Positions 1-63,822 of a DNA stretch of 64,000 bases are shown here, piece by piece (position 1 is the first letter of the stretch; every line of letters begins with the position of its first letter). This stretch comes from a virus. The stretch spans positions 37,259-101,258 of IMG/VR virus record IMGVR_UViG_3300034374_009254; one strand, written 5' to 3'. The notes under the pieces are model-generated. The model saw only the letters and a program-made list of their open reading frames with translations, was not told the DNA's origin and ran no database searches. The translations under genes and the position numbers were made by a program.

Positions 1-412
1 TTAACTCATTTCCATTTGCATCTGTAAAACGATTTAAGTAAGAACTAGGAGTATCCGGATCAATACAAAATTGATGCTCATACTGAACATTATTTAAGGT
101 ATTTGCTCCGTGGCCTCCTTCGTAATGCCAGCAATACATTGTTTCGTCTGCAAGAACTTGACACATCGGAGTACCCGCGCGAAGAGTATATCCGTTACCG
201 TCTGTATTTCGAGTATAATTCGAAGAGTCATTATAGCCCATTTGTGCTTTCTTTTCAGACGAGGCCCTCATCTGAATAGTTCCATTAAAAATCGGAGCAA
301 GAGTAGTTTTGTCATAAGCATCGTGGTCCAAATAGATAGTATTCTTTCCAGGCCTTGGGTCCTCAAAAATTGTACAAACTCTAAAGGATCGTGCGTCTTT
401 AATCTTTGCCAT
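1..412 (-). CDS. Virion/tail-associated protein, partial (runs off window start)
   Basis: ATG at 412 preceded by AAGGAG; frame MAKIKDARSFRVCTIFEDPRPGKN... is open to position 1 (read manually). Confidence 0.75.
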   Translation of the reverse strand, partial: MAKIKDARSFRVCTIFEDPRPGKNTIYLDHDAYDKTTLAPIFNGTIQMRASSEKKAQMGYNDSSNYTRNTDGNGYTLRAGTPMCQVLADETMYCWHYEGGHGANTLNNVQYEHQFCIDPDTPSSYLNRFTDANGNEL

Positions 413-424
413 CAGTTTTTCTCC

Positions 425-655
425 TTAGGCCTGAGCTTGATACCAAGCTACTACTTCATTGAGGTCTGTCCAGTCTGCACGACTGCCATCATCTTGAGTT
501 TTCCAAGGTTGTAAGACCACAGATGTGTGATTATTTTCAGAATCTACTACAAAAATTTCTGCAACTCCGTCTGTAAGAGTTGCGTGAAAATTTTCAGTAA
601 CGTCAACAGGGTTTCCATCTTCATCTGGAACCTGTATAATTTTTGTAAAATCCAT
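425..655 (-). CDS. Small hypothetical protein in the tail fibre cluster
   Basis: 76-aa ORF, AAGGAG RBS, co-oriented with neighbours. Confidence 0.75.
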   Translation of the reverse strand: MDFTKIIQVPDEDGNPVDVTENFHATLTDGVAEIFVVDSENNHTSVVLQPWKTQDDGSRADWTDLNEVVAWYQAQA

Positions 656-666
656 AGATTATCTCC

Positions 667-2433
667 TTAAGTTCTCTTGTGGATAAATTGTAAATATAAA
701 TCTGAGCCAATAGCACTTGTACCAACATTTGTGATATCGACAGTTAAGTAGTCTCCTTCAGCCATTGTCAAAGTAGGATTGCTAACTGTTCCACTTGTGT
801 TTCCTGCAGAAACAGTTACTGTTTGAGCCGATGTTCCGTTTTTCTTTACATCTGCTACAACATCAGCATCCGCTAGACCCCCTAACTTCGCATTTATTTT
901 ACTAACTTCCAGATTGAATGGTGCATACCATCTTTTAGTCCCTGTTCCAACCTCTAAAGACCCGATTTTATGCATATTTATTGCTAACGGCGTATTATCT
1001 CTAACAGTTGCAGGTAAAGACGTCGTTGTTGCAAATTGAGTTGTATTTGTTTCTACAATTTTTTCAATTTTTGCTTGAAATTGAACAGTATCATCTAGAT
1101 ATTCTCCCATATCTTTTACTTTGAATTTGTCCGTTGTGGCATCATATACAAGACACAAGTTTCCAATATCTGCAACAGTAGGAACTGGCTTAACTTCTAC
1201 TGGAGTAACGTGTCCTTCTTGATCATGTTGAAAAAATAATCTATAGTTTCCATTTTCGTAAGTCTCTACTTCGAGAGGCTTAATATTTATTTGCCCTCGC
1301 ATAGCAGAATGATTACCGCACTGATAGTACAAAGTATCCGGCGCGTCGCTTGGAACTACAAATACTAAAGTTCCACTTTCGTTTCTGGAGCCTGTTACAC
1401 CGCTTGTATACTCTCCTATATAACTTCCTGCTGAAAAATTTGTTCCATCATCTGTTGTTAAGTAGAAAGGATGGCCCGAAAGAGAAGCGTCTAAATTGAA
1501 AGTATAAGTTCCTCCCTTGTAAAGAGGGCCAAGAGTAGGATTGTTTCCAGAAGCAGTTCCACTAAAGGTGTAGTACCCTGTCGTTGCAAATTCAACATCA
1601 TAAGTTACAGTGGGAGCAGTAAGAGTAGGTGCTGTAATTGTTGAGGGTACAGCAATAACAAGTCTTTGAACTTCAGTAGCTTGTCCTCCATTTATTGCAG
1701 GATTTGTAACTCCTGTAACATTAAGTGTGGAAGTAGACCAACTTACATTATTATCTGTGCCTGCACCTTCAATCCACTTTAAATAAATTTTATGAGTTTG
1801 AGTCATACTACCATGAAGGTCGTGTGCCGCAAAATTATTTACTGTATAAGTTCCCTGATTATATAAAGGTACTACAGATTGCTGTTGATTTTCAATCTTT
1901 GTTCTAGCATAAGCTACTGTTCCTGCATCCCAAGTCCATAGCCAATCTGCCCCATGGCCTGCCGTAGGATCGTCTACATTAATTGTAAATGTTTCTGGAG
2001 TAATTGAAAGGTCTACTTCAAAACCTGGATTAGTTGCTAAATCTTGTTGTACTTGAGTAAAATTAACGGCACCTGCTGTAGTTGCTGTAGTAGTAGTTTT
2101 TCCATCTTGAGTTACAACTAAAGCTGTAGGGTTTGGAACTTCTGTAGTAGGTGGAGGAATAATTGCAATATTACCATTTGTTTCATCTGTTGTAATTTTT
2201 GCATCCCCGAGATTAATTGTTCCCGCAGATACATACAAGTCTCTCCACTTATTTGTAGAAGACCCCAGATCATAAACTTCATTTCCTACAGGAAGCCAAT
2301 GTTGTCCAACATTTACAGGCAGTCCTTCTGGATCTGGAGTCCAAGCGCCCACAGTAGAGTCATAAGTAAATGTCTTACCTCCTGAGGTATGTGTGTCGCC
2401 GTTATTTGGACTGTCTGGAAAATTTATTGCCAT
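667..2433 (-). CDS. Modular tail fibre/virion protein with cupredoxin-like domain
   Basis: N-terminal NFPDSPxNGD module; YDLGSSTNKWRDLY fibre motif; GHPFYL...YYQCGNHSAM type-1 copper ligand pattern. Confidence 0.75.
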   Translation of the reverse strand: MAINFPDSPNNGDTHTSGGKTFTYDSTVGAWTPDPEGLPVNVGQHWLPVGNEVYDLGSSTNKWRDLYVSAGTINLGDAKITTDETNGNIAIIPPPTTEVPNPTALVVTQDGKTTTTATTAGAVNFTQVQQDLATNPGFEVDLSITPETFTINVDDPTAGHGADWLWTWDAGTVAYARTKIENQQQSVVPLYNQGTYTVNNFAAHDLHGSMTQTHKIYLKWIEGAGTDNNVSWSTSTLNVTGVTNPAINGGQATEVQRLVIAVPSTITAPTLTAPTVTYDVEFATTGYYTFSGTASGNNPTLGPLYKGGTYTFNLDASLSGHPFYLTTDDGTNFSAGSYIGEYTSGVTGSRNESGTLVFVVPSDAPDTLYYQCGNHSAMRGQINIKPLEVETYENGNYRLFFQHDQEGHVTPVEVKPVPTVADIGNLCLVYDATTDKFKVKDMGEYLDDTVQFQAKIEKIVETNTTQFATTTSLPATVRDNTPLAINMHKIGSLEVGTGTKRWYAPFNLEVSKINAKLGGLADADVVADVKKNGTSAQTVTVSAGNTSGTVSNPTLTMAEGDYLTVDITNVGTSAIGSDLYLQFIHKRT

Positions 2434-2443
2434 TGTTTACTCC

Positions 2444-3658
2444 TTAAGGTAGATCAGCTCCATAATACTGAATACTATCTTTGGTGCCATCTTGTGCTGT
2501 AATAAAATACATTCCTGAAAATGTATCTAAATTATAAGTTCCTGCTGAAACATCTTTTCGATATACATTTACCGCACCTTGTCCAGGTATAGCATCAGAA
2601 GAAAGAGTTGCATGGGAAGTATATGTATTTATATCAGATACTGCATTCCAAGAAGAATCGTTTCTTAATAGCCAAATTCTAACCGGGCCATCAAAAGTTA
2701 TAGATCCTGCATCCGCTTGGCCACTATTTACATCTGTAGTACCCCAAGCCCCTTCTAAATATGGAGCAAGCGTAGATAAATTACTTGCATAAGCGACCCA
2801 GTTACCTCCATTTGCAGTTAGTGTTAAGCCGTCTGTTATTTTTGCCATCGGAGCTAGAGAATGATGTTGCCAATTAGTAATATCTGCAACAATAAAGCTC
2901 AAACTGAAGTCTACAAAACGAGTTGTAATTCTTGCTCCATCCGACGCACTTAAACGTGCTCGAAAAGTTCCTGCATTTGCTTTTGTAGTAGTTGGCGTAA
3001 AAGTATATACACCGGTACTTTGATTTATAGTTGTATCTGCACTAAGCTGGGAAGGTCTTGCATTATTCGCAGTTTTATAAGCAATTCCATAAGTAATATC
3101 AAAACCTTCGGGGTCTTGTGCCACCATTGTAACTGTACTTGTAGTTCCATCACTATTTAATTCTTGTGTAGTAGGCGGCTCTGTAGTAATTACAGGACTT
3201 TCATCATTTCCTGCAGCTATTCGATCCCACTCTGTACCATCCCATACATAAAGTGTTTTTGTATCAGAAGTAAAAGCAAAATCTCCTACAGTATTTCCGC
3301 TAGTAGGAACTGCTGCAAAATTTGCATAAGCAGTTACAGAAGAACCATCAGCACCATCAGCACCATCAGCACCATTGGCTCCTGCGGGTCCTGCAGGTCC
3401 TGCGGGTCCAGATACACCTACCCATTGACTTGAAGATCCGTCACTATAGTAAACATAAAGACTACTAACATCTGTACGATACCACAAGTCTCCCGCTTTT
3501 GGATTTAAAGGAGCAGTATCAGAAGAAGTAACTGTCGCGGGCAAAACTCCTACAGCAGTATCCTTCCATACTCCTTTTGTCGAGTTATAGGCATACGTTA
3601 CACCATTTAGTGTAAATGTATCTCCGTTACTCGGACTATCTGGAAAATTATATGCCAT
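2444..3658 (-). CDS. Modular tail fibre/adaptor protein with short collagen segment and Ig/cadherin-like domain
   Basis: NFPDSPSNGD module, APxxPxxGDLW...QWV module, GPA/GAD triplets, DPEGFDITY domain shared with the next two genes. Confidence 0.75.
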   Translation of the reverse strand: MAYNFPDSPSNGDTFTLNGVTYAYNSTKGVWKDTAVGVLPATVTSSDTAPLNPKAGDLWYRTDVSSLYVYYSDGSSSQWVGVSGPAGPAGPAGANGADGADGADGSSVTAYANFAAVPTSGNTVGDFAFTSDTKTLYVWDGTEWDRIAAGNDESPVITTEPPTTQELNSDGTTSTVTMVAQDPEGFDITYGIAYKTANNARPSQLSADTTINQSTGVYTFTPTTTKANAGTFRARLSASDGARITTRFVDFSLSFIVADITNWQHHSLAPMAKITDGLTLTANGGNWVAYASNLSTLAPYLEGAWGTTDVNSGQADAGSITFDGPVRIWLLRNDSSWNAVSDINTYTSHATLSSDAIPGQGAVNVYRKDVSAGTYNLDTFSGMYFITAQDGTKDSIQYYGADLP

Positions 3659-3667
3659 TTTTACTCC

Positions 3668-4969
3668 TTATACAAATGTGATCGTGCAAGATCCGTTACT
3701 ATTTGCGGTTCCTCCACTTGTTGTAGTGCTTCCATTAGTAACTACATTTGAATCAAAATATCCTGAGCCACCCGCTCCTCCAGACCCTGCGTCGGGAAAT
3801 ACAATAGCTCCCCCGCCTCCGCCATAGTAGCCACCACCCCCACCTCCAGCTCCGCCGCCCGAAGGAAAGAAGCAACCTATGCCGCCATTTCCAAATCCCG
3901 GGCCAGAGTTTGCCGGATTGGGATTAGTATAACCTCCTCCCGATGAAGTTCCTGCAGGTGCCGCACCACCATTTCTTCCGGATCCAGGATTTCCATTGTA
4001 TCTATTACCTCCAGCACCTCCACCTGCACCGGTTTGAGTACCTCCTCCCGCTGGAGTATCATTTGAGTTGGTGCTAGTGTCACTACCAGCACCTCCTGTA
4101 GTGCCTCCACCCCCGCCGGTTTGAGTGCCTCCATTCATGCTACCGCCACCACCACCAGCTACCATTATAGGAACTTCTCCAGAACCGTAAGTACCTGTGT
4201 AAATGCCAGTACCTTCTCCGCCATTTCCTCCATATCTTGAATCTGTGCCATTATTACCTTTAGCCCCTACTAAAAGATTAATACTTGAATTCGCAGCAAG
4301 AGTATATCTACCTGATGTAAGCCCTCCTGCACCCCCGCCTAACCCATCGCTACTTCTACCTCCACCTGCTCCACCTTCTAAATCAAAATCTAAATCAAAA
4401 TCAGCGGCAGTATTATTACTTAAAGTATAAACGGTATTAGCTGCAAATCCTGTTACACTTCCTGATGTAAAAGTTGTATTTCCACTTACTGCAGGAGATA
4501 CTGTAAGTGTAGCAAAAGCAAGATATACAGTCGACGTTGTTCGTACTACTTTTCTTCCATCGTCTGCTTTAATTCTTAGTGTAAAGTTTCCCGCATTAGC
4601 AGAATTTGTAGATGGTGTAATTGTAAAAGTTCCATCATTATTATTTACAATTGTTGCTTGTGACTGATCTGCTGGAAGCACGTCATAGCTATATGTTACA
4701 GGAAACCCTTCTGGGTCCGAAGCCGCTACCGTAACTGTAGTAGCTGTACCATCAGATGCAAGAACATAAGAAGATTGTGCTTCTGTAGTAAAAATTAGAC
4801 CTGCATCAGGACCAGAAGCTACACGATCCCACCTACTACCTTTCCAAACATGCAAAGTTCCTGTTGCTTGATCTACAATAATTTCACCTGTATTACCGCT
4901 TGCAGGAAAACTTGCAGAGTTTGCAAAACTTTTTTTACCTCTTGCTTTTATGTCTGAATAGTTTGCCAT
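3668..4969 (-). CDS. Glycine-rich putative adhesin/receptor-binding protein
   Basis: Shared N-terminal module plus C-terminal GGGGGxYGGGGG-type Gly-rich domain. Confidence 0.7.
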   Translation of the reverse strand: MANYSDIKARGKKSFANSASFPASGNTGEIIVDQATGTLHVWKGSRWDRVASGPDAGLIFTTEAQSSYVLASDGTATTVTVAASDPEGFPVTYSYDVLPADQSQATIVNNNDGTFTITPSTNSANAGNFTLRIKADDGRKVVRTTSTVYLAFATLTVSPAVSGNTTFTSGSVTGFAANTVYTLSNNTAADFDLDFDLEGGAGGGRSSDGLGGGAGGLTSGRYTLAANSSINLLVGAKGNNGTDSRYGGNGGEGTGIYTGTYGSGEVPIMVAGGGGGSMNGGTQTGGGGGTTGGAGSDTSTNSNDTPAGGGTQTGAGGGAGGNRYNGNPGSGRNGGAAPAGTSSGGGYTNPNPANSGPGFGNGGIGCFFPSGGGAGGGGGGYYGGGGGAIVFPDAGSGGAGGSGYFDSNVVTNGSTTTSGGTANSNGSCTITFV

Positions 4970-6219: not shown

Positions 6220-9200
6220 TATCGCTCCGTCATTACCCAACCTTGAGTAGCATTATAGTATACTAATCCAAAGGCTGCTCTATCTACATCAATTGTTAAA
6301 TCTGTTGCGCTACCTTCAATATTATGTCCATTTCGTGCTATTGTAATATTATTTGTTGCCGCATTTCCAGTACCATCAATAATTCTTATTTCATCGCCAA
6401 GTACTGCAGCTACAGGAAGTGTAACTGTTACTGCAGTTGAAGTATCTACAATCAACCTGTCTCCAGCTTCTGCAGTATAGGCTGCTGTTTTCTCTGCCCA
6501 AGTACTACTACTTCCACCCCCAGAAGGATTAGTTTTTACCCATTGAGTAGATGAACCATCATCAATGTATACATACAAGAAAAGATCGTCATCGTCAAAC
6601 CACAGGTCCCCTGCCGTTGGCGAAGTAGGTGCGGTATTCCCTACAGTTACAGAGGCACCACCACTTGAGCCTCCTGAGCTACCGCCCGCTCCAGAGGGAT
6701 TAGTTTGTACCCATTGATTTGATGTGCCGTCATTGTAGTATACATATAATACTAAATCTACATCGTCAAACCATAGATCTCCTGCGGACGGACTACTCGG
6801 AGCTGTTCCTGATACGGTTACAGAAGCTCCGCCTCCGCCTCCAAGTCCTGAGATTGCAGCTTGAACAAACGCAGTAGTTGCAATTTGAGTTGTATTCGTA
6901 CCACTTGTAGCAGTAGGTGCAGTAGGTGTCCCTGTCAGTGCAGGATCTGCAAGAGGTGCTTTTAAAGCTAGATTATTTGTTACTGTTGTAGAAAAGTTTG
7001 CATCATCCCCCAAAGCTGCTGCAAGTTCATTGAGAGTGTCTAAAGCTCCTGGCGCTGAATCTATAAGATTTGCAATTTCTGTATCTACATAGGAAACAGA
7101 AGCAGCATCAGTAATACCATAACCTGCCAAGGTAGTAGGAGTACCTGTAAGGCTACTCCAAGCTCCGTCAAAAATTTGAGAGTTATTTGCAAGTTCTACC
7201 CAGTTACCTGCATGAGCAAAATAGGCTTTTCCTGTTCCATGAACGTGTGCAAACATACCATGATAGGTTGATGCACTTGGTAAGTCTCCTGTAGTTGCAA
7301 ACATATTTGCATAGTACGCCTTACCTGTAGTAATAAAATCGTTGCTACCAATATCTATATCTAATAAAGTACTAGCACCATCTGTAATACCATATCCTGC
7401 AAGAGTAGTGGGCTTTCCAGTAATTGTACTAAATGTTACGGGCTTATCAAATGTGCCTCTAGAATCTGATACCTGTATGGAAGTTGCATTGAGTGCTTTA
7501 CCAGCAATAACAGTACTAACAGTAGTAGAAATAGTGCCGTTATCTTGTACATACATTGTTGTATCAGGAGTAAGCGATGAGTGTACATCACTAATTGCTC
7601 CAGCAAGCATTACAGTTACTGTATCGCCATCTGCAACAGTTGATTGTGCAATTCCTAAGTAAGAATCTTTTGTACTTGCAGCAGAAGTACGGAAAAACGA
7701 AGTATAGATATTACTATTATTACTAGGATAAGTGTCCCTATCGCTAGATACCATTGCAAGATAGCCCGCAGGATCATTCTCCCCCGCAGGGAATCTTAGC
7801 GAAGCACTACCATAATCTCTTGTTACTACTAGAGTAGCTCCTAGCTCATTTGCAAATACCCCAGAAGTCGAAACAGATGCTAAAGCTCTATGAATAGTTC
7901 CATCATCATATTTTGTAAGAATACCAAACTTATCATCTGTTTTTGAACACTTTATTGTATGCTCTAAGATATAATAATTTGCATTATTATTTCCAGGCCC
8001 CATACTAAGTACATTTGATTCTGCGTTTGAAGCAAATGCAAAAGTACTTCCATTAAAAGTAGAGCTTCTCATCATTAAATCGACAGGAGCCCCTACATAC
8101 CAATAATTTCTTCGGCTAGAAATGAGCATTTCAGAGCCTACGTGGTAGAATATTTGATTTCCGTTAGTTGCCCAAGTCGTATTTGTTGCAGCAGTAGACC
8201 AAGTAATACTTGTTCCAGAAATTGTACCAATCGAGTATGTTACAGTTCCTCCAGAAAGAGAAGCTGCAACCAATTTATTATAAAGTTTTGACCACTCAAA
8301 AGCTCCATAAGCTGGAGTAAGACCAATTGCTATTGCGCTACCAAAAGTAATTGTAGTTCCTGATACTGTTACAAAATGACAGTCAGAACCATTTAATGCA
8401 ATTAAATCACCAGTTTCAGTAGTAATAATTTTACTATACGCACCCACATTATTTGCGGGACCTATAGATAAAGTTCCTGAACTATTTGTAACAATATAAG
8501 AATTCGTTCCAACTTTAAGAATACCTGTTGAAGTCCCATTAATATGAAAATACTTATCAGGAGTAAGACTAGATAAAAGAGTTTGAGGAGTTCCAGGACT
8601 AAAAGTTAGAGTAGCAAGATTTGTATTCCAAATTACACCTACAGTTTGACCACTAGTATTCTGATAAAATTGTTGGTATACTCCGTCTTGATCGTTGTAA
8701 TCAAGAGCATCTTTTTGAGTATAATAATGAGTAGTGCTACTACTATTTGCCAATTGCGCATGAGCGCCTGCTACAGGCGCTGTAGCTACTGCCGTTACCT
8801 CTCCAGTAGTTGCTCCAAGAGTTACTGCAGTTCCAGAAGTAATTGCACCATCTGCAATAAAATCTATTTGAGAGTCTCCGCCTGATGTACTAAATCCTGC
8901 GATCTCTCCTTGTACAAATGCAGTTGTTGCAAGTTGTGTGCTACTATCTCCTGTTGTTGCCGTCGGGGCTGCGGGAGTACCTGTAAATGTTGGAGAAGCT
9001 AAAGGTGCAGCATCTGTGATACCATATCCTGAAAGAGTAGTAGGAGTACCTGTTAGTGAGCTAAACGCTGCGTCAAAAGTACTGTAGTCAGTGCCTGCCA
9101 CCGCTGCACTAATATTTCCTGCTCCGTCTGCTTTTACAATGCCATTAATTGCACCGACTACAGGATCAGTTTCTGTATAACTTGTGAGATAGCTACTTAA

Positions 9201-10964
9201 ATCGGCGGGAGTAAATGTAAATACGCCCGTAGTATTATTATATGATAATCCACCGTTAGAATTTGGAGTGCCAGTAGTTACACTAAAACTATTAAGACTA
9301 GCATTTCCAAAACTAGAAGTATCTGCAGGAGTAAAGGTAAATACACCTGTAGTATTATTATAGCTAAGGGCGCCTCCTGAAGATGCACTCACAGTACTTA
9401 CACTTAAATCCGTAAGTTCAATATCATTTGCCACTGCGGTCTGTACAAACTCCGTTGTAGCAATTTGAGTAGTGTTTGTTCCACTTGTTGCTGTCGGAGC
9501 TGTTGGAGTACCTGTTAATGCAGGATCTGCTAAAGGAGCTTTGGTTGCTAAACTATTTGTAACTGTAGTTGCAAAATTTGCATCATCATTTAATGCTGCG
9601 GCTAATTCATTTAAGGTATCTAAACTTGTAGGCGCAGAGTCTACAAGATTTGCAATTTCGGTATCAACATATAGCTGAGTTGCATAAGTGCTTAAATTAA
9701 CAGGAGTAAAGTCAAATACGCCTGTAGATGAGTTATATGATAAAGCATTCGTTCCTGCTGCTAACGTATTAACAGAAAAATCTTGTAGTTCTGTTTTTGT
9801 ACTAGAAAGAGCATATAAATCTATAGTAGAAGTTGAGTATAAGAATAGTGTTGAAGCTGACTGTGCTACACCTATTTTTACATCATTATCAAATTGTCTA
9901 CTATTACGAAGAGTTCCTGTTACTCCAATAAATACTTCATCTCCTGCAGTCAGCCCAGAGAGTCCAGTAACTGGACCTGAAATAATAACTTCTACAGAGT
10001 TGCCTGTAGATGCTGTAGAATTTGCAAAACCTATGAAAGTATCATTAGAAGTACTTATTGTAGAAACAGTACCATCACTGTTTAAAACAAGAGCATCTTT
10101 AGCCGTAATATTTCCAGATGCAGTTAAAGACGTTTTTAAAGAGCGATTAGGTCCAGAGGTAGTAGCCCCCACACCTTTATCTAGTTCTGTTGAAATTAAG
10201 TTTCGTGGTACTACACTATCATCATCACCAATTGATGAATTTACAGGAAGTACTAAACCACCTGCAGTACCTTGAGAAAGACCTGCGGTACCAATAAAAA
10301 CAGTATTATTTGCAAAGTGGCCTTCCTTAAAAGGCTTAGCTGCTGTACCAATTGTTGAATTTAACCCTACAGGAATTATAGAATTAACATACAAAGTATC
10401 CCAAGGACTAGTACTATTACCTAAGTTATTTACAGCATTAACATTAGAGCTAAGAGGTGATACATCTCCTACAACATTTTCTAGATGATATGTTACATAG
10501 CCTGAAGTAACTATTGTTGATGTATTAGCTTGGGCTTGCGTATAGCTTAGTGATTGTATATACTGTGGTACAGTAAAAGTATTAGAAGCGGATAAATCAG
10601 CTTTAGTAGCTAGGTCAGCAAAAAGTGCTGCATTTCCCAGTTGAGAATCATTTTGAACACTTAAAATAGGAGCAACTACGTCCTGAACAAACTGTGTATT
10701 AGCTATACTAATACTATCGTCTGAGGCCGCAATTGTCCTATTTAAAGTTGCATTTCCTGTTAATGAAGGGGCTGCCAATGGTGCCAGAGTAGCACTTGCA
10801 TACTGCTCAAATTGAATAATGGCTTCTTTTAAGTTGATAAAATTTGTATCAACTTCTAAAACAGAAAGCAGTCTGTTAACAGCATTCGAGCTGCTACCAT
10901 CACTATACGATTGAGCAGTATCTTTTGTTACAATAACAATGTTAGTGCCGATATGTGCAGACAT
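6219..10964 (-). CDS. Long tail fibre protein (1581 aa)
   Basis: Two LDTLNELAAAL-DDANF-APLADPALTGTPTAPT repeats; TPTTLAGYGITD repeats; two GDLW modules; C-terminal domain of the type seen in T4-like fibre/baseplate proteins. Confidence 0.85.
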   Translation of the reverse strand: MSAHIGTNIVIVTKDTAQSYSDGSSSNAVNRLLSVLEVDTNFINLKEAIIQFEQYASATLAPLAAPSLTGNATLNRTIAASDDSISIANTQFVQDVVAPILSVQNDSQLGNAALFADLATKADLSASNTFTVPQYIQSLSYTQAQANTSTIVTSGYVTYHLENVVGDVSPLSSNVNAVNNLGNSTSPWDTLYVNSIIPVGLNSTIGTAAKPFKEGHFANNTVFIGTAGLSQGTAGGLVLPVNSSIGDDDSVVPRNLISTELDKGVGATTSGPNRSLKTSLTASGNITAKDALVLNSDGTVSTISTSNDTFIGFANSTASTGNSVEVIISGPVTGLSGLTAGDEVFIGVTGTLRNSRQFDNDVKIGVAQSASTLFLYSTSTIDLYALSSTKTELQDFSVNTLAAGTNALSYNSSTGVFDFTPVNLSTYATQLYVDTEIANLVDSAPTSLDTLNELAAALNDDANFATTVTNSLATKAPLADPALTGTPTAPTATSGTNTTQIATTEFVQTAVANDIELTDLSVSTVSASSGGALSYNNTTGVFTFTPADTSSFGNASLNSFSVTTGTPNSNGGLSYNNTTGVFTFTPADLSSYLTSYTETDPVVGAINGIVKADGAGNISAAVAGTDYSTFDAAFSSLTGTPTTLSGYGITDAAPLASPTFTGTPAAPTATTGDSSTQLATTAFVQGEIAGFSTSGGDSQIDFIADGAITSGTAVTLGATTGEVTAVATAPVAGAHAQLANSSSTTHYYTQKDALDYNDQDGVYQQFYQNTSGQTVGVIWNTNLATLTFSPGTPQTLLSSLTPDKYFHINGTSTGILKVGTNSYIVTNSSGTLSIGPANNVGAYSKIITTETGDLIALNGSDCHFVTVSGTTITFGSAIAIGLTPAYGAFEWSKLYNKLVAASLSGGTVTYSIGTISGTSITWSTAATNTTWATNGNQIFYHVGSEMLISSRRNYWYVGAPVDLMMRSSTFNGSTFAFASNAESNVLSMGPGNNNANYYILEHTIKCSKTDDKFGILTKYDDGTIHRALASVSTSGVFANELGATLVVTRDYGSASLRFPAGENDPAGYLAMVSSDRDTYPSNNSNIYTSFFRTSAASTKDSYLGIAQSTVADGDTVTVMLAGAISDVHSSLTPDTTMYVQDNGTISTTVSTVIAGKALNATSIQVSDSRGTFDKPVTFSTITGKPTTLAGYGITDGASTLLDIDIGSNDFITTGKAYYANMFATTGDLPSASTYHGMFAHVHGTGKAYFAHAGNWVELANNSQIFDGAWSSLTGTPTTLAGYGITDAASVSYVDTEIANLIDSAPGALDTLNELAAALGDDANFSTTVTNNLALKAPLADPALTGTPTAPTATSGTNTTQIATTAFVQAAISGLGGGGGASVTVSGTAPSSPSAGDLWFDDVDLVLYVYYNDGTSNQWVQTNPSGAGGSSGGSSGGASVTVGNTAPTSPTAGDLWFDDDDLFLYVYIDDGSSTQWVKTNPSGGGSSSTWAEKTAAYTAEAGDRLIVDTSTAVTVTLPVAAVLGDEIRIIDGTGNAATNNITIARNGHNIEGSATDLTIDVDRAAFGLVYYNATQGWVMTER

Positions 10965-10995: not shown

Positions 10996-12489
10996 TTACG
11001 GCGTGTCTTTCAATTGTACAGACCAAGTAATTTGCAGAGTATCATCAGTTGCTTTATTTACTACGTTGAATGTGGTACGACACAGCATAGTTTGACTAAT
11101 AGCACCCTTAGTAGAACCTGGAGCGTTAAGAGTAACGATTGAGCCTCCCAAAGTATTAGTTTGTGCTGTACCTGTTCCGCCGCTTGGAAGAAGGGGTGGA
11201 TCAAATGAAGTTAAGTCTGCATTGGTATTAGCATCTACATCAGGCTCCAGAGCATTAAAAATACCTGCTTCTACGATTGGGCACTCGGTGCCTCCACCTG
11301 TAAAAGTTGTGCCAGTCGGAGCAGGATTCTGCTCTTTAAAAGTAGCTACGTATACAATACGAGTACCGGTCTTTTTAGTACCTGCAACAGCATTCGGAGG
11401 GCTAGTATTTGTGGGATCCGAAGTGTCAACAGGACTAGGCTGAGAACCATAATCATTTTCACTAGTTGGGTACCCTTCAGGATCTACACCTTGGTCAATT
11501 ACAACACTACTACCCGCAACAGTACCTTGGAATACTCCGTCAACAGAAGTACCAAATTGAACAAAAGGATCACCATATGCAATATCTACAGGTACATCGT
11601 CTGCGTCTCCAAAAAATGGGGGCACTGGATCACTGGTGCCATTAATACCAGCATCTCCCTGATTGTAGTAGCCTCCAATAATGCCTCGAGTAGGAATGTT
11701 TCCAGATCCACCAAGATCTGCAGAATTAACACCAGTTACATCCCCCGCGCCACTCCAGCTAACTGTAGATTCTACAACTCCTGTTGATGGATTCAAACGA
11801 CCAACCTGACTTTGAATAGGTGTAAACGTTAATGTTACAGGGGTGCCTGCAGTAGCAAATGCAGAGTTAGTGGTATCAATAGTAGCGTCCAAAGTAAACT
11901 CCAACAGACCGTCAGAATTAATATTTTTTGCAAGAATTTTTGTCCCGTCGGGAAAAGCTTTAGTGCCTCCTGACGTAGTATCGCTTACTGTCATAATTGC
12001 GTCACCAATGTTACCACCTGGCGCACGGATATATCTAGCATTGTAAGCATCTGATCCTTGGTTGGTTGTAGGGGCAATAGTAAGAGTTGTGCCTGAAGCT
12101 CTCAGATATGGAGCAGGAAGCGTGTCTGCAAAGTCTACAGTAAAAGTTGCATACTCTGCATTAAAAGACGTATCTCTTTTAACTTGTACACGAAGCCCTT
12201 CTTCAAATTCCAAGGCACGATCAGTTGCACTAGTGGTAGTAAATGAACCTACATTACCACCTCTACTTGCGTCTGCTTGGCCTGAGCCAATCGCCATATG
12301 GCTCATCATTCGAGGAATAACATGGCTTCCTCGAATATCTTGTTTTGGGTCTATTAAACGGCCGACAATATGGGCCAAACCGTAGTTTGTTACCATATTT
12401 CGAATAGTTTTATGTTGTTTTACTCGACCCGCGTTATCTCTCAAAACGAGATTGACAATTCCCTTGATTTGAGCACTGTCTTTTTGCAT
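10996..12489 (-). CDS. Tail collar/fibre-attachment-like virion protein with insertions
   Basis: NMVTNYG...MAIGSG...EAGIFN...MLCRTTFNVVNKATDDTLQITW pattern. Confidence 0.6.
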   Translation of the reverse strand: MQKDSAQIKGIVNLVLRDNAGRVKQHKTIRNMVTNYGLAHIVGRLIDPKQDIRGSHVIPRMMSHMAIGSGQADASRGGNVGSFTTTSATDRALEFEEGLRVQVKRDTSFNAEYATFTVDFADTLPAPYLRASGTTLTIAPTTNQGSDAYNARYIRAPGGNIGDAIMTVSDTTSGGTKAFPDGTKILAKNINSDGLLEFTLDATIDTTNSAFATAGTPVTLTFTPIQSQVGRLNPSTGVVESTVSWSGAGDVTGVNSADLGGSGNIPTRGIIGGYYNQGDAGINGTSDPVPPFFGDADDVPVDIAYGDPFVQFGTSVDGVFQGTVAGSSVVIDQGVDPEGYPTSENDYGSQPSPVDTSDPTNTSPPNAVAGTKKTGTRIVYVATFKEQNPAPTGTTFTGGGTECPIVEAGIFNALEPDVDANTNADLTSFDPPLLPSGGTGTAQTNTLGGSIVTLNAPGSTKGAISQTMLCRTTFNVVNKATDDTLQITWSVQLKDTP

Positions 12490-53081: not shown

Positions 53082-53198
53082 GTGTACCTCTGTGAGATTA
53101 TGCTATATTGTATCCCGAAAGAGCACCAAATGTCAAGGCTTATTTTTGGTTAGGTGTTCAAAAAACCCCAAAGTTTTACGTGTGGGGTAGCGCGCGCA

Positions 53199-53217
53199 AA
53201 TGAGAATCATTCTCGTC
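53199..53217. promoter_or_regulatory. Fur-box-like operator
   Basis: AATGAGAATCATTCTCGTC, a 7-1-7 inverted repeat matching AATGAnAATnATTnTCATT. Confidence 0.7.
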
Positions 53218-53386
53218 TAGAAACCGCCCACCCCGGCCTGGCCTATAGCACAGACCCGGCCCGGCGTCAAGCAATTTTTTTGTGAAATATTCACATAAAA
53301 AAAGCTGTACTTTTGGGCACGGGTTCGGTTATAATCTTTTCATCGGATGGGGATTGGCCCTGTCCCTTTTTAAAAGGTAGCATCTT

Positions 53387-53680
53387 ATGTCTAACTACAC
53401 TGATAAAATGGTCGCGGCGATTCGCTCTGCGGCTCCTCTTAACCTCGCCAAAGCTAAGGCACTTGCCGAGCAATTCGGGAGCGTATCACATCGCTCGGTC
53501 ATTAGCAAGGCGCAAAGCCTCGGCGTTGAATACGTCAAGGCCGCTCCCGCCGCGCGTCAGCCTCGCGGCATCACTAAGGCGGAATATCTAGCCGCCATTC
53601 GCAAGGGTTTAAACCTTGCTGATCGCGAAGGCGATCTAACCAAGGCGGAGCTTTCCGCCGTGTTGCAGGCTATCGCATGA
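53387..53680 (+). CDS. T5 A2/D3-like DNA-binding protein
   Basis: NYT...LAEQFG..S.RSVISK...GVEYVK...TKAEYL pattern. Confidence 0.75.
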   Translation: MSNYTDKMVAAIRSAAPLNLAKAKALAEQFGSVSHRSVISKAQSLGVEYVKAAPAARQPRGITKAEYLAAIRKGLNLADREGDLTKAELSAVLQAIA

Positions 53681-53874
53681 TAGCCTTTGCCGCTTGGATC
53701 GGGGCCGCTTGCATGATGGCGGCCCCTTTCATCATCGACACGAGCGCGGGAAAATATCTTGCGATTGTCGGTTTGGCATTATTAACATTGCAAGCGATTG
53801 CCAATCGGTGCTATAATCTGGTCTTGCTTAACATCGTTGGTATCGGAGGATATTTTTATGCGCTTTATCTATGA
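53677..53874 (+). CDS. Small multi-TM membrane protein
   Basis: Hydrophobic 65 aa, ATGA overlap. Confidence 0.7.
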   Translation: MIAFAAWIGAACMMAAPFIIDTSAGKYLAIVGLALLTLQAIANRCYNLVLLNIVGIGGYFYALYL

Positions 53875-54331
53875 TTTAGATCACACTGTGATCGACTCGT
53901 CACATCGTCAGCTTACACTTGCTGACGGCTCACTCGATCTGGATCACTGGATCGAAAACAACACGCCCGAAAAAATCGCGCGTGACCGACTGCTACCGCT
54001 TGCCCGTCACTGGCGAGCGCAACGCGAACGCGGCTGTGAGATCGTGGTCTGCACTGCTCGCGTTATGGGTGCGGCAGATTACGAATATCTGCGCGCAAAT
54101 AACCTCGAATGGGATGCTTGCCTATCGCGCCCACTCGGTAACACTAACCCAGACGGCGAGCTAAAATTTGCACTATTGCAAAAATACGCTCGCGCAAAGA
54201 CTCACTCATGGGCTAGGTTTTGCAAATTTAGCCTAATGATAGATGACAATAAAAACGTCATCTCTTACTTGACTGCTCGCGGCTTGCGGGTTTATAATGC
54301 ACTTGAAATTAACGCGAGGTTAGCGGCATGA
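53858..54331 (+). CDS. HAD-family phosphatase
   Basis: Motif I DLDHTV, motif II TAR, K, motif IV IDD; GGAGG RBS before ATG 53858. Confidence 0.85.
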   Translation: MRFIYDLDHTVIDSSHRQLTLADGSLDLDHWIENNTPEKIARDRLLPLARHWRAQRERGCEIVVCTARVMGAADYEYLRANNLEWDACLSRPLGNTNPDGELKFALLQKYARAKTHSWARFCKFSLMIDDNKNVISYLTARGLRVYNALEINARLAA

Positions 54332-54837
54332 TAATTCGATCTACTGACTCAATCCCAGAAATCACCCCGATCTCTGGCATGGCTTGGCACTACGTTTGGG
54401 AATTGCTCGAATTTGGTGTTTTCAAAAACGGCTACGCTCGACACGCCTACAAGAACGGCAAGCATGGCGGCATTGAGCGTGTGCGCTGGTGTTTGCAAGA
54501 TTGCGAGGACGCTTTCGGCTACAATCGCGGAGAGCTTCACGCTCGCATCTGGCGGATGCGTTTGGGCGACAACGAAACGGTGCTCGCGGCAGAGCAATTT
54601 GTTCACTCACGCGAGGCAAACCGCGAGGACAAAGCCATGCTGTATGACAAGCGTTGGCTTGACGTTGGCGGTAAATCGGAATTTTATTTCTGTGACCAAA
54701 AAACTGCGTTGACTCGCTACGCCAATAGCTACCGCAAAACCAATCTGGCAATCGGTGCGGCGGTGCGTGATTTCAAACGCGCAAAGGGAATCCACGGCTG
54801 TCCCTACCCTGTTGACTATGAGGAGGTTTTAGCATGA
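54328..54837 (+). CDS. Hypothetical protein, possibly GIY-YIG/T5orf172-like
   Basis: Weak pattern FKNGY...R...EQFVH...EFY. Confidence 0.45.
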   Translation: MIIRSTDSIPEITPISGMAWHYVWELLEFGVFKNGYARHAYKNGKHGGIERVRWCLQDCEDAFGYNRGELHARIWRMRLGDNETVLAAEQFVHSREANREDKAMLYDKRWLDVGGKSEFYFCDQKTALTRYANSYRKTNLAIGAAVRDFKRAKGIHGCPYPVDYEEVLA

Positions 54838-55433
54838 AAAACCTACAAGCAAAACTAAACCGGCTCGCGGAGAATCTCTCCGCTCCGGTTGCGGTAATTT
54901 TAGAAGGGCGAGACACTGCGGGCAAATCCTCGACCATTCGAGAATTGACCCACTACCTGCCGCCCGATCTTTATAGCGTTTGCCTTTCGCACAAACCTAG
55001 CAAACGCGCAATGTCATCATGGCTGGCATATTGGGAAACCAAACTACCAAAGCAAAACCAAATCGTGTTTTTTGATCGCTCTTGGTATTCTCGCGCGATG
55101 GTGCAACATATCAACGGATGGTGTACACCGAAACAATACGAGATTTTTATGCGCGACCATAAAAATTGGGAAGCTAATCAGCCGGTGCGCTTGATTAAAT
55201 TTTGGCTTTCGATTTCGGAAGATGAACAAAAACGCCGAATCGAAATGCGAAAAAATTCTCCGCTGACTTATTGGAAATTTTCGCCCAACGATGAAAATGC
55301 GCTTTCACACTATGACAGAATGAGCATTTTGAAAGAGCGCGTTATTGATTCCGATTGGCACACAATTAATTTTGAAAATAAACGCGCGGGAATAAAAAAA
55401 TTGCTTGACACATTATGCCGCGATCTGGCATAA
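54834..55433 (+). CDS. ppk2: Polyphosphate kinase 2
   Basis: Walker A EGRDTAGKSS, FDRSWY, KFWLSISEDEQKRR, WKFSPND. Confidence 0.93.
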   Translation: MKNLQAKLNRLAENLSAPVAVILEGRDTAGKSSTIRELTHYLPPDLYSVCLSHKPSKRAMSSWLAYWETKLPKQNQIVFFDRSWYSRAMVQHINGWCTPKQYEIFMRDHKNWEANQPVRLIKFWLSISEDEQKRRIEMRKNSPLTYWKFSPNDENALSHYDRMSILKERVIDSDWHTINFENKRAGIKKLLDTLCRDLA

Positions 55434-55479: not shown

Positions 55480-55695
55480 ATGTCTGCACAATACTCTAGC
55501 CACGTTACTCAGGAAGACCTTTTCGACTTGGCGGCTTACCGTCACTTTGACACTTGCCGGAGCTGTGGCAAGACCTGCCCTGCCGCTAACTACTACGAAG
55601 GGCGCGTTTGCCACGTTTGCTACAACGAAGACCTAGACTTTTGGTCAGCTTGGGACTGGAGGTTCGAGTGGGAGTGGAGCCGAAAAGCCAAGTGA
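55480..55695 (+). CDS. Small Zn-finger protein with Trp-rich tail
   Basis: CRSC...CHVC; AAGGAG RBS; own promoter TTGACA-18-CATAAT. Confidence 0.7.
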   Translation: MSAQYSSHVTQEDLFDLAAYRHFDTCRSCGKTCPAANYYEGRVCHVCYNEDLDFWSAWDWRFEWEWSRKAK

Positions 55696-55697
55696 CG

Positions 55698-55713
55698 TGT
55701 TCCACGTGGAACA
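55698..55713. promoter_or_regulatory. parS: parS centromere-like site
   Basis: Perfect 16-bp palindrome TGTTCCACGTGGAACA matching the chromosomal ParB-binding consensus. Confidence 0.8.
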
Positions 55714-55750
55714 ACGCTAGGCCACGACCCTACCTGCCTTCGGCCAGGAC

Positions 55751-55795
55751 CAAGCGACCAAGCGGTCGCTTGACAATTTTGGCGCGGCCGCGCCA
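55751..55795. repeat. Two adjacent inverted repeats
   Basis: CAAGCGACC-AAGC-GGTCGCTTG and TGGCGCGGCCGCGCCA. Confidence 0.85.
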
Positions 55796-55836
55796 GTAGT
55801 AGTTCGACGACGACTTTTTTTGGTGTACCGCGCGCC

Positions 55837-56160
55837 AGAATAAGTGCAAACGCGACCAATGTCAAGTCTTTTTTGCACGATTGGATAAAATTTTTTTAAA
55901 TTGTTTTGGTCTTATAAAAGCGCCGCGCCGATTATACAGTGCGGGGTCAATGCTGTCAAGTACTTTTTGCACAATTGCCCAAAATAATTCGACGCGCTGG
56001 TCTCTGCTAGACCCCGTGCCCACCCTGGTAGTATACGCGCAAGGCCCGGAATTGTCAAGAACTTTTTGCGGCAATTGTGCAAGATTTTTAAAAGCGCGAG
56101 CCTGGCGGCGCCGATTATACAGTAGTGCGCCGACGATGTCAAGTACTTTTTGCACAATTC
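55837..56160 (-). repeat. Array of four ~84-99-bp units, each a leftward sigma70 promoter
   Basis: TTGACA-17-TATTCT/TATAAT/TATACT/TATAAT; -35 at 55860-65, 55954-59, 56053-58, 56137-42; shared GCAAAAA upstream tract. Confidence 0.85.
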
Positions 56161-56175
56161 GTGAAAATAAATCGC

Positions 56176-56374
56176 TTGACTAGTCTCTGCGGGGACGGTA
56201 TAATTAGCGCAAATTGTAGAAACCTGGGGCATCCCCGCGACAATTTTTGATAATTTTGGTAGATTCGAGAAAATAATTCTTGACACGATTAGGTCGTGTG
56301 CGGCCCCCCGGAATTCGCTTGCGTTGGGGTTACGACAAAAAAGATTTGACATTTGTAACCGAAGCGAGTATAAT
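56176..56374 (+). promoter_or_regulatory. Two rightward early promoters
   Basis: TTGACT-17-TATAAT (56176-56204) and TTGACA-17-TATAAT (56346-56374). Confidence 0.85.
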
Positions 56375-56400: not shown

Positions 56401-56589
56401 ATGACTGATGTACAATTCGAAGCCTTTAGCTTATACGCAGGTATGCGCTATGACGGTATGTCTAAGCTGGATGCATTTATGTACACCATACGGTGTCTGC
56501 TTCCAGAAGAGGACTACCCTAACGGATACGATGATAGTGCGATTGAATTATACTCTTGGCTTCGACAAAAGGTAAAACTGGATGACTAG
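56401..56589 (+). CDS. Hypothetical early protein
   Basis: GGAGG RBS, first gene after the promoter. Confidence 0.75.
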   Translation: MTDVQFEAFSLYAGMRYDGMSKLDAFMYTIRCLLPEEDYPNGYDDSAIELYSWLRQKVKLDD

Positions 56590-62886: not shown

Positions 62887-63033
62887 TTGATAACTACTAC
62901 TGAATTTGCAATTTTTATTTTTTGCCTTCTTGGGTGTGGAATACACTCTTGGAAGTTAGGAAAATCACAAGGAGTAGAGGCTACCGTCCAGTACATGATT
63001 GATACGGGAGTACTCGAAGTAGAAGATGAATAA
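62887..63033 (+). CDS. 48-aa single-TM protein (not in ORF track)
   Basis: AAGGAG RBS, TTG start, MITTTEFAIFIFCLLGCGIHSWKLGKSQGVEATV... Confidence 0.65.
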   Translation: MITTTEFAIFIFCLLGCGIHSWKLGKSQGVEATVQYMIDTGVLEVEDE

Positions 63034-63091
63034 TTCGTTGAAGTAATAAACTAACGGTTGGACTCGGGTGCAATTCCCGACAGCTCCACCA
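63032..63091 (+). ncRNA. ssrA: tmRNA acceptor piece (permuted gene, 3' half first)
   Basis: GAC + T-arm TCGGG-TGCAATT-CCCGA + CAGCTCC-A-CCA. Confidence 0.9.
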
Positions 63092-63105
63092 TAAGGAGTT
63101 TTATA

Positions 63106-63276
63106 ATGCGTATACCAATGAAAGGTGGTGATGAGTTTGATGGACTGTCTCGACGTTCTAAAAGATTTTTTCTTTGGAGAGCCGGAGAAAGAAAGAGCCT
63201 CAAGAGAAAGTACAATAAACGACGCAGAAAGACTTTTTATGATGGGGCTGATACAGACTCGACAGGCGTACAGTAG
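63106..63276 (+). CDS. 56-aa basic protein encoded in the tmRNA intervening segment
   Basis: AAGGAG at 63093-98, ATG at 63106, MRIPMKGGDEFDGLSRRSKRFFLWRAGERKSLKRKYNKRRRKTFYDGADTDSTGVQ. Confidence 0.75.
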   Translation: MRIPMKGGDEFDGLSRRSKRFFLWRAGERKSLKRKYNKRRRKTFYDGADTDSTGVQ

Positions 63277-63410
63277 ACTTATGGAGAATTCGTGCGGAAG
63301 CTACGTTAACGCAACAAACTTAATAAATGCCAACGACGACATTTATGCACTTGCTGCCTAATTAAAGGTAAGCGGGGTGGGAGGAGCCTGGCAACAGAAA
63401 TCCTCAAGCT
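63244..63410 (+). ncRNA. ssrA: tmRNA coding piece; tag ANDDIYALAA
   Basis: GGGGCTGATACAGACTCGAC 5' end, pk1-like element, ATAAAT-GCC resume context, tag 63329-63361. Confidence 0.92.
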
Positions 63411-63429: not shown

Positions 63430-63822
63430 ATGAAGAAACTTTTAGCGGGGTTTGCACTTCTCGGCCTTTCAGCCGGAATCGGTGCAGAAACTGTAATTAA
63501 CTATGATGATGGCTCTACCTACACTTTGGAAGAGAATCAAGAAATTTATATCAGTACGCCGAACAGTGCTTTATTTAAGCGGCAGCTCATGAAAAATAAG
63601 GACACTTTTTTTCGTGTTCAAGAGCCTTGGACAAAGCGTGACTATGTGCCTGATCCAGACGGAACTGATACTATGGTCGTAGGCTCACACGAATGGTGTA
63701 AAGCATACAAGCCTTGGCACGAAGGTCTTACGTTTAACATGATTTCATGGCAACGTGCTTGTGATACCAACAACGATGGTGTGTATGATGAGGACGACGA
63801 CAGATGGCCTGACGAAGGCTAA
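63430..63822 (+). CDS. Secreted/periplasmic protein with C-terminal EF-hand-like loop
   Basis: Signal peptide; DTNNDGVYDEDD. Confidence 0.75.
   Translation: MKKLLAGFALLGLSAGIGAETVINYDDGSTYTLEENQEIYISTPNSALFKRQLMKNKDTFFRVQEPWTKRDYVPDPDGTDTMVVGSHEWCKAYKPWHEGLTFNMISWQRACDTNNDGVYDEDDDRWPDEG

Follow-up and report, generated by a model that had tools for sequence, protein, structure and literature searches.

Why would a virulent phage that encodes neither ParA nor ParB carry a perfect copy of the bacterial partition site parS, and which protein would read it? On chromosomes, ParB binds parS and spreads from there as a CTP clamp, and the sites are usually clustered. The locus raising this question lies in a 64,000-nucleotide stretch of viral DNA (hereafter the window), which makes up the right end of an IMG/VR record of 101,258 bp that is rated as 100% complete. 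A sequence-only reading of the window had described a canonical chromosomal-type parS, located between genes at the end of the DNA that would enter the cell first, and had suggested that the phage may exploit the ParB of its host.

The phage and its parS locus

Judged by its genes, the phage is an uncultured marine relative of T5, i.e., a T5-like siphovirus. The late genes (tail fibres, major tail protein, a head protease-capsid fusion, portal, and the large (TerL) and small terminase subunits) occupy the minus strand of the window at 667-52195, and a T5-like replication set (NAD ligase, DnaB-type helicase, PolA, SbcC-like nuclease, and RNR) is encoded elsewhere in the genome. The closest cultured relatives are Pectobacterium phage My1 and the Vibrio T5-like phages (Demerecviridae), with TerL being ~50% identical to theirs, while a megablast of the parS region against 50,697 phage records gave no match. 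Six-frame HMM searches of the whole genome detected no ParB_N, HTH_ParB or ParA-type AAA_31 domain, so that the lack of parA and parB that had been claimed for the window holds for the entire genome. No tyrosine integrase was found in the genome either, and by these domain searches together with the T5-like replication and structural modules, the phage is virulent and devoid of parA, parB, and lysogeny genes. The start and the end of the contig both fall in paralogous genes (~85% identical stretches at window 63430-63822 and genome 31-348), which indicates that a tandem paralogue family interrupted the assembly and that the record is a circularly permuted assembly, its ends not being those of the virion.

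A circularly permuted, alpha-type two-piece tmRNA at window 63032-63408 (RF04321 117 bits, RF01849 92.7 bits) hints at an alphaproteobacterial host. Its tag reads ANDDIYALAA, a pattern that had 0 matches in 185,579 species genomes, and a BLAST search of the tmRNA against 401 Alphaproteobacteria returned weak matches that covered conserved parts only, in genomes of 1.1-5.3 Mb (the best two being 1.5 and 1.8 Mb). A literature search for marine T5-like phages with a tmRNA found nothing.

The site, TGTTCCACGTGGAACA at window 55698-55713, is a perfect 16-bp palindrome in the exact parS form and has the 16-bp inverted repeat of the chromosomal consensus tGTTNCACGTGAAACa. It is the sole match at ≤ 3 mismatches in the 64-kb window (0.09 expected from shuffles) and at ≤ 2 mismatches across the whole 101,258-bp record, and parS half-sites are neither significantly depleted nor enriched in the whole phage genome. 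Two base pairs separate it from the stop codon (TGA) of a 71-aa ORF (55480-55695), and ~690 bp of non-coding repeats and promoters follow on its 3′ side before the next gene starts at 56401; the intergenic position at the head of a repeat and promoter block was thus described correctly. GC content is higher here than elsewhere in the genome. The region is also rich in palindromes, so that the presence of one more palindrome would be unsurprising in itself. The features of the locus (window coordinates, strand) are as follows:

53199-53217, no strand: palindromic motif AATGAGAATCATTCTCGTC, followed by ACCGCCCACCCC (to ~53240), with homology to the My1/T5 left terminus and injection-stop repeats
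53387-53680, plus: 97-aa ORF, first gene of a short rightward operon, without family match
53798-54331, plus: homologue of T5 Dmp (deoxynucleoside-5′-monophosphatase), 177 aa (BLASTP E 6e-14, 30% identity; tblastn; PHROG polynucleotide-kinase/HAD-type match)
54328-54837, plus: 169-aa ORF, no matches in family searches
54834-55433, plus: compact polyphosphate kinase 2 (PPK2), 199 aa (Pfam PF03976, E 8e-41)
55480-55695, plus: 71-aa Cys-rich ORF, last gene before parS, exchangeable cassette
55698-55713, no strand: parS TGTTCCACGTGGAACA, exact match, 16-bp conservation island in 34 of 44 class A relatives
55770-55810, plus: first block unit, with TTGACA, the 16-bp GC palindrome TGGCGCGGCCGCGCCA (55780-55795) and GTAGTAG..CGACGA; motif used for collecting relatives
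55837-55865, 55931-55959, 56030-56058 and 56114-56142, minus: four leftward sigma-70 consensus promoters (TTGACA-17-TATAAT type) facing parS
56176-56204 and 56346-56374, plus: two rightward consensus promoters ahead of the early genes starting at 56401

The rightward operon upstream of parS spans 2.3 kb and includes the homologue of dmp, a pre-early gene in T5. The leftward promoters are near-perfect and spaced 84-99 bp apart.

Conservation of the site and its counterparts in bacteria and other viruses

A first exact-word scan of IMG/VR for parS yielded two syntenic relatives (L009 and L030). In order to avoid selection on parS, relatives were then gathered by the neighbouring block motif GCGCCAGTAGTAGNNCGACGA, which retrieved 61 IMG/VR contigs. 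The resulting 62 loci (window included) comprise 47 of class A and 15 of class B, a sub-clade that has the variant ...CGACGATTGT and no parS in any locus. Upstream sequence was sufficient for judging parS in 44 of the 47 class A loci, and the site (≤ 1 mismatch to TGTTNCACGTGNAACA) was present in 34 of these, 48-263 bp upstream of the first block unit, against a chance expectation of ~6e-5 per locus; no such match was found elsewhere in the ~580 kb of class A loci. The concern that the site might be missing from relatives was therefore not borne out, as it is kept at the same place in these 34 loci.

The 34 sites represent 28 distinct flank contexts. Each of the 16 positions carries 1.3-2.0 bit of information, compared to 0-0.4 bit per column in both 40-nt flanks, although the alignment was anchored on the parS motif and the independent evidence is therefore the count of 34 in 44. 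The genes upstream of the site differ among relatives (PPK2, small membrane-like ORFs, and others), without any constant neighbour, and a conserved stretch of only 16 bp amid flanks and upstream genes that change over 28 contexts is the pattern expected from selection on the site. Variation across these contexts is confined to positions 1, 5, 8/9, and 12, as in the degenerate positions of bacterial parS, and includes a symmetric double change to the universal consensus as well as asymmetric forms that break the palindrome (TGTTCCACGTGAAACA). One parS per genome was found in this phage and in the records of four relatives.

The site is dispensable, as it is missing from ten class A loci. In one of them (L143), which has 91% nucleotide identity with the window in PPK2 and is nearly identical from 10 bp past the parS position, another small ORF replaces the Cys-rich ORF together with parS (7000-7800 compared with window 55480-55720), and no parS was found across its 48-kb record; nine further class A loci lack it as well. 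The stop codon of the upstream gene abuts parS in at least 12 of the 28 contexts, the genes being unrelated, which suggests an insertion hot spot at the left edge of the site. Among cultured phages, parS was found neither in T5 and My1 nor in the Vibrio phages 234P1 and pVp-1.

At least 120 bacterial genome contigs, spread over many phyla, contain the exact 16-mer, and copies frequently lie in groups of 2-5 spanning a few kb, which bears out the description of the phage site as a canonical chromosomal-type parS. ParB was encoded in all five genomes tested among those chosen for the exact 16-mer, two of which belong to Gammaproteobacteria. We also examined for parS and ParB_N the five alphaproteobacterial genomes that the phage tmRNA matched best: all five carry TGTTTCACGTGAAACA, TGTTCCACGTGAAACA, TGTTCCACGTGGAACA or CGTTTCACGTGAAACA sites, and ParB_N was detectable in four, where sites of the parS family lie 1-3 kb from parB. 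The variants in the phages (TGTTCCACGTGAAACA, TGTTTCACGTGAAACA, CGTT..., and CACATG) are those located 1-3 kb from parB in alphaproteobacterial genomes. The phage site thus shares the identical 16-mer and the same variant spectrum with the parS of chromosomal ParB(Spo0J)-CTP complexes, from which it differs in being viral, single, and without adjoining parAB.

Exact parS was also present in at least 120 viral contigs, whereas two composition-matched control palindromes were present in 3 and 12, i.e., an over-representation of at least 10- to 40-fold; the true viral count is higher, since most class A loci with an exact parS are outside the 120 matches listed. ParB_N was absent from 39 of the 41 parS-bearing viral records ≥ 20 kb and from 14 of the 15 that are ≥ 90% complete. 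As the site is over-represented in viral contigs that mostly have no ParB gene, the use of host ParB by phages may be common. Intergenic orphan sites were seen in several unrelated clusters (L057:310-350, L088:3372-3412, L121:1-60, as well as L033, L036, L053, L064, L091, L111, L117, and L118). One viral cluster has a tandem pair of TGTTCCACGTGGAACA and TGTTTCACGTGAAACA, the two commonest variants, 8 bp apart and just after a -10-like box, and in another, parS is placed between a terminator and a gene start, with flanking TGTCAG repeats.

The putative left end of the genome and the injection-stop region of T5

The position of parS relative to the genome end was approached through a 17-nt palindrome, ATGAGAAnCATTnTCAT, which was seen 35 times (~1 expected) and in relatives lies 1.7-2.7 kb upstream of parS or, in loci without parS, 2.0-3.8 kb upstream of the block. 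Eight relatives (L009, L133, L134, L146, L148, L155, L162, and L176) also carry a copy that precedes parS by 23-47 bp, and the window has the motif at 53199-53217. The motif is almost confined to the terminal repeats in T5, including the injection stop signal (iss, 9553-9708), and My1 has it in the annotated left repeat of 12,854 bp, at bases 18-34, with five tandem copies at the right end of this repeat (iss 12188-12332). The sequences at or resembling the left end compare as follows:

My1, left end: starts ...ctaaATGAGAATAAGTCTCATTACCGCCC
Marine relatives, left-end-like: ...ctaaATGAGAATGAGTCTCATTACCGCCCCC
T5, left end: ...AGTCTGCTAACCGCCACCCC near base 30
Window, left-end-like: ATGAGAATCATTCTCGT ctagaa ACCGCCCACCCC

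Window 53160-53300 is homologous to the left termini of My1 (bases 15-42) and T5 (~25-48), sharing ATGAGAAT... and then ACCGCCC(C). Within this segment, the palindrome is preceded by a conserved CCCCA...TGGGG hairpin, and a fifth leftward promoter-like unit (CGTCAAGCAATTTTTTT) and the palindrome TGTGAAATATTCACA follow on its 3′ side. The segment is probably the left boundary of a terminal repeat. Its homology to the termini and injection-stop repeats of My1 and T5 lets us infer that the genome begins on the left near window 53.18 kb with a terminal repeat of ~3 kb, so that parS would lie ~2.5 kb inwards, at the trailing edge of the first-entering segment. The proposed location of parS at the end of the first-step-transfer DNA is accordingly backed by the dmp homologue upstream, by the terminus homology at 53199-53240, and by the iss palindrome, all of it indirect support, with the genome ends deduced from homology. 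An IMG/VR 'direct terminal repeat' in a related record (82.8 kb, locus L125) was rejected as a physical repeat: positions 1-4911 and 77895-82805 form a 4.9-kb, 100% identical assembly overlap that covers the terminase, the portal, and part of the capsid gene.

In T5 and its relatives, conserved DnaA boxes are present in iss, just after the last rightward pre-early gene, and according to the hypothesis of Davison, they arrest DNA entry via membrane-associated DnaA (bioRxiv 10.1101/866236). The layout of our phage matches that of T5 iss in having a non-coding repeat region after a rightward pre-early operon, as far as terminal-repeat ends placed by homology allow the comparison, and the repeat motif ATGAGAAnCATTnTCAT is common to it and to the iss of T5 and My1. 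In both this phage and T5 (Repeat Region 3), the site of a host origin-region protein heads the conserved repeats, yet the sites differ, being DnaA boxes in T5 and parS here, and the terminal repeat would be only ~3 kb, without A1/A2. DnaA boxes were found neither in nor near the block in any of the 62 loci, and no CtrA boxes were found in the marine block. There is thus an apparent swap of DnaA boxes for parS at an iss-like place. As for the pre-early genes, no A1 was found in the phage genome, and the T5 A2 search returned only an unconvincing match (E 0.008, genome 5245-5556); the 97-aa ORF had been a candidate for A2 and was rejected, having no similarity to T5 A2.

The label 'Fur box' that the sequence-only reading had given to a motif of this region was not supported, as the fit of the marine motif to the E. 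coli Fur consensus is poor. Since it is shared with T5 and My1, it looks like an element of the phage lineage. The iss repeats of T5 (9553-9708) and My1 (12188-12332), based on ATGAGAATCATTATCAT, differ from the E. coli Fur-box consensus by 3-4 mismatches in 19, and the word 'Fur' does not occur in the Davison preprint (bioRxiv 10.1101/866236).

Host ParB as the probable reader of the site, and competing readings

As the phage has no ParB and most relatives keep the exact 16 bases, host ParB is most likely borrowed. We consider it likely, with appreciable room for doubt, that the 16-mer is a genuine parS, kept so that the chromosomal ParB of the host loads onto phage DNA, and with practically the same confidence, host ParB is the probable reader of what would be a working loading site.

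The principle that a virulent phage without ParB uses that of its host is already established by the Bacillus phage phi29, which has five parS sites for host Spo0J that aid the segregation of its genome into the prespore (PMC2731898); at the parS sites of phi29 and Nf, the bound protein is the Spo0J/ParB of the host (Meijer et al. 2005, summarized in PMC2731898). Our phage resembles phi29 in being virulent, in lacking parA and parB, and in having a host-type parS (with the use of host ParB being a prediction here), as well as in the sites for other host or regulatory factors near its promoters. It differs from phi29, where five sites are dispersed, in having a single one, and prespore trapping contrasts with a host that is probably a non-sporulating marine proteobacterium; spore entrapment being unlikely in such a host, ParB would have to serve another need of the phage. 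Borrowing of host ParB is hence less novel as an idea than had been implied, and it is the T5-like setting that is new, namely the T5-like lineage, the single site at an iss-like platform, the apparent replacement of DnaA boxes, and the non-spore host.

Other known cases are more distant. A literature search for lytic phages with a native parS returned nothing but SGI1 and systems in which phage DNA was labelled with an engineered parS. In the engineered lambda-parS, ParB occupies the site within minutes after injection (10.1101/2025.11.03.685801), and the parS copies of SGI1 hijack the ParABS system of IncC plasmids (PMC10954446). SGI1 is comparable as a mobile element that has no ParAB of its own and bears the parS of another replicon to use its partition proteins, but it is an integrative mobilisable element that relies on a plasmid system for stable inheritance, and not a lytic phage relying on a chromosomal one. 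In the plasmid-prophages P1 and N15, phage DNA is likewise handled by a ParB-parS complex; unlike the genome described here, they are temperate and have their own ParA and ParB along with a private parS.

Regarding the role of the site, ParB dimers would nucleate at parS and close as CTP clamps upon arrival of the first-entering segment, and the clamped phage DNA could be coupled to the host partition apparatus (ParA, or polar anchoring in Alphaproteobacteria). Such coupling might hold or position the incoming genome, or permit its inheritance if infection stalls, as for phi29 via Spo0J, and the strong leftward promoter array beside parS would limit the sliding of clamps into the early genes. 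Tethering and positioning, or partition, is the most likely among the roles considered, albeit a tentative choice. It is followed by a transcriptional gate, which we regard as unlikely, and at slightly longer odds still by a true injection stop. The reeling-in of the genome through SMC and the titration of ParB, both suggested in the sequence-only reading, gained no support from the sequence analysis. If host ParB is indeed borrowed, the phi29-type strategy would extend to a very different and abundant group, i.e., marine T5-like siphoviruses, probably of Alphaproteobacteria, and the occurrence of parS at the place of the T5 DnaA boxes would lend separate comparative weight to the view that the first-entering DNA of T5-like phages is acted on by host proteins that organise the chromosome.

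A wider generalization is that the halt or tethering of this DNA depends, in T5-like phages, on a host origin-region protein whose site heads iss, with DnaA in the phages of Enterobacterales having been swapped to ParB/parS in the marine clade. To our knowledge, Enterobacterales have no chromosomal ParB. We hold this generalization to be doubtful, about as improbable as the injection stop; if true, this position would have been filled by two independent solutions, and host-factor mutants would allow a direct test of how T5 transfers its DNA in two steps, a long-standing puzzle. Mutants of parS and ParB depletion would provide a simple handle on the old question of T5 DNA entry.

In the gate reading, the ParB-parS complex would block or silence transcription running from the four leftward promoters towards the dmp/PPK2 operon (in the right-hand repeat, also towards the late genes further left), and multiplying phage genomes would titrate ParB until the gate opens, in the manner of a copy-number timer. 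Chromosomal ParB is generally no strong repressor, which counts against such a function, as does the distance from parS to the first promoter, ranging from ~50 to > 260 bp among relatives. The geometry would nonetheless suit it, with parS directly between the promoter array (55837-56142) and everything to its left, and in other phage clusters an orphan parS directly follows a -10 box or separates a terminator from a gene start. Clamps of the ParB family, KorB among them, are described as silencing distant promoters (PMC13768133), and the promoters of phi29 also carry boxes for host Spo0A, parS being paired with these (PMC2731898).

The remaining readings are each poorly supported. According to the first of them, the palindrome belongs to the injection-stop or terminal-repeat machinery of the phage, as a phage-protein site or a DNA structure, and is identical to parS by coincidence or convergence. 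Its place within a phage-specific block of palindromes and repeats, the layout homologous to T5 iss, and the relatives without parS would be in keeping with this, whereas the chance of a 16/16 identity (~1.5e-5 per window), the variants that follow bacterial parS degeneracy even where they break the palindrome (TGTTCCACGTGAAACA), the lack of such a site in T5, My1, and two Vibrio T5-like phages, the missing constant neighbour gene, and the over-representation of parS in unrelated viral contigs all speak against it, leaving it improbable. A neutral remnant of captured host DNA, or a hitch-hiker with the upstream small-ORF cassette, could account for the exchange in L143 of the segment that includes the window parS and for the elevated GC content of the region; it was already disfavoured by conservation limited to 16 bp, with flanks and upstream gene varying in 28 contexts, and we give it very little credence. 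Least plausible of all is that the site ends the operon as an RNA hairpin or terminator: although the transcript can form a 6-bp stem at the site, no U-tract follows, the terminator scan was empty there, the spacing from the upstream stop codon varies, and single-sided variants that break the pairing (C5 with A12, CACATG) are retained and fit a ParB site better than a hairpin, so that on the terminator scan, folding, and these variants, both forms of this reading were rejected.

Three minor observations concern the surroundings of parS. PPK2 stands in the presumed first-expressed operon; it is upstream of parS in the window and in L009 and downstream of the block in the L125 record (G001). In a right-hand copy of the terminal repeat, the leftward promoters would point, via the dmp operon in antisense, at the late-gene strand (MTase, terminase, head, and tail). 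Finally, the block unit TGGCGCG(G/C)nCGCGCCA-GTAGTAG-nn-CGACGA (55780-55810; relatives L122-L180) is a GC-rich palindrome in an AT-rich phage, kept in 61 IMG/VR contigs and often repeated ~126 bp apart. As the nick sites of T5 begin with GCGC, a nick or terminase role for this unit is conceivable.
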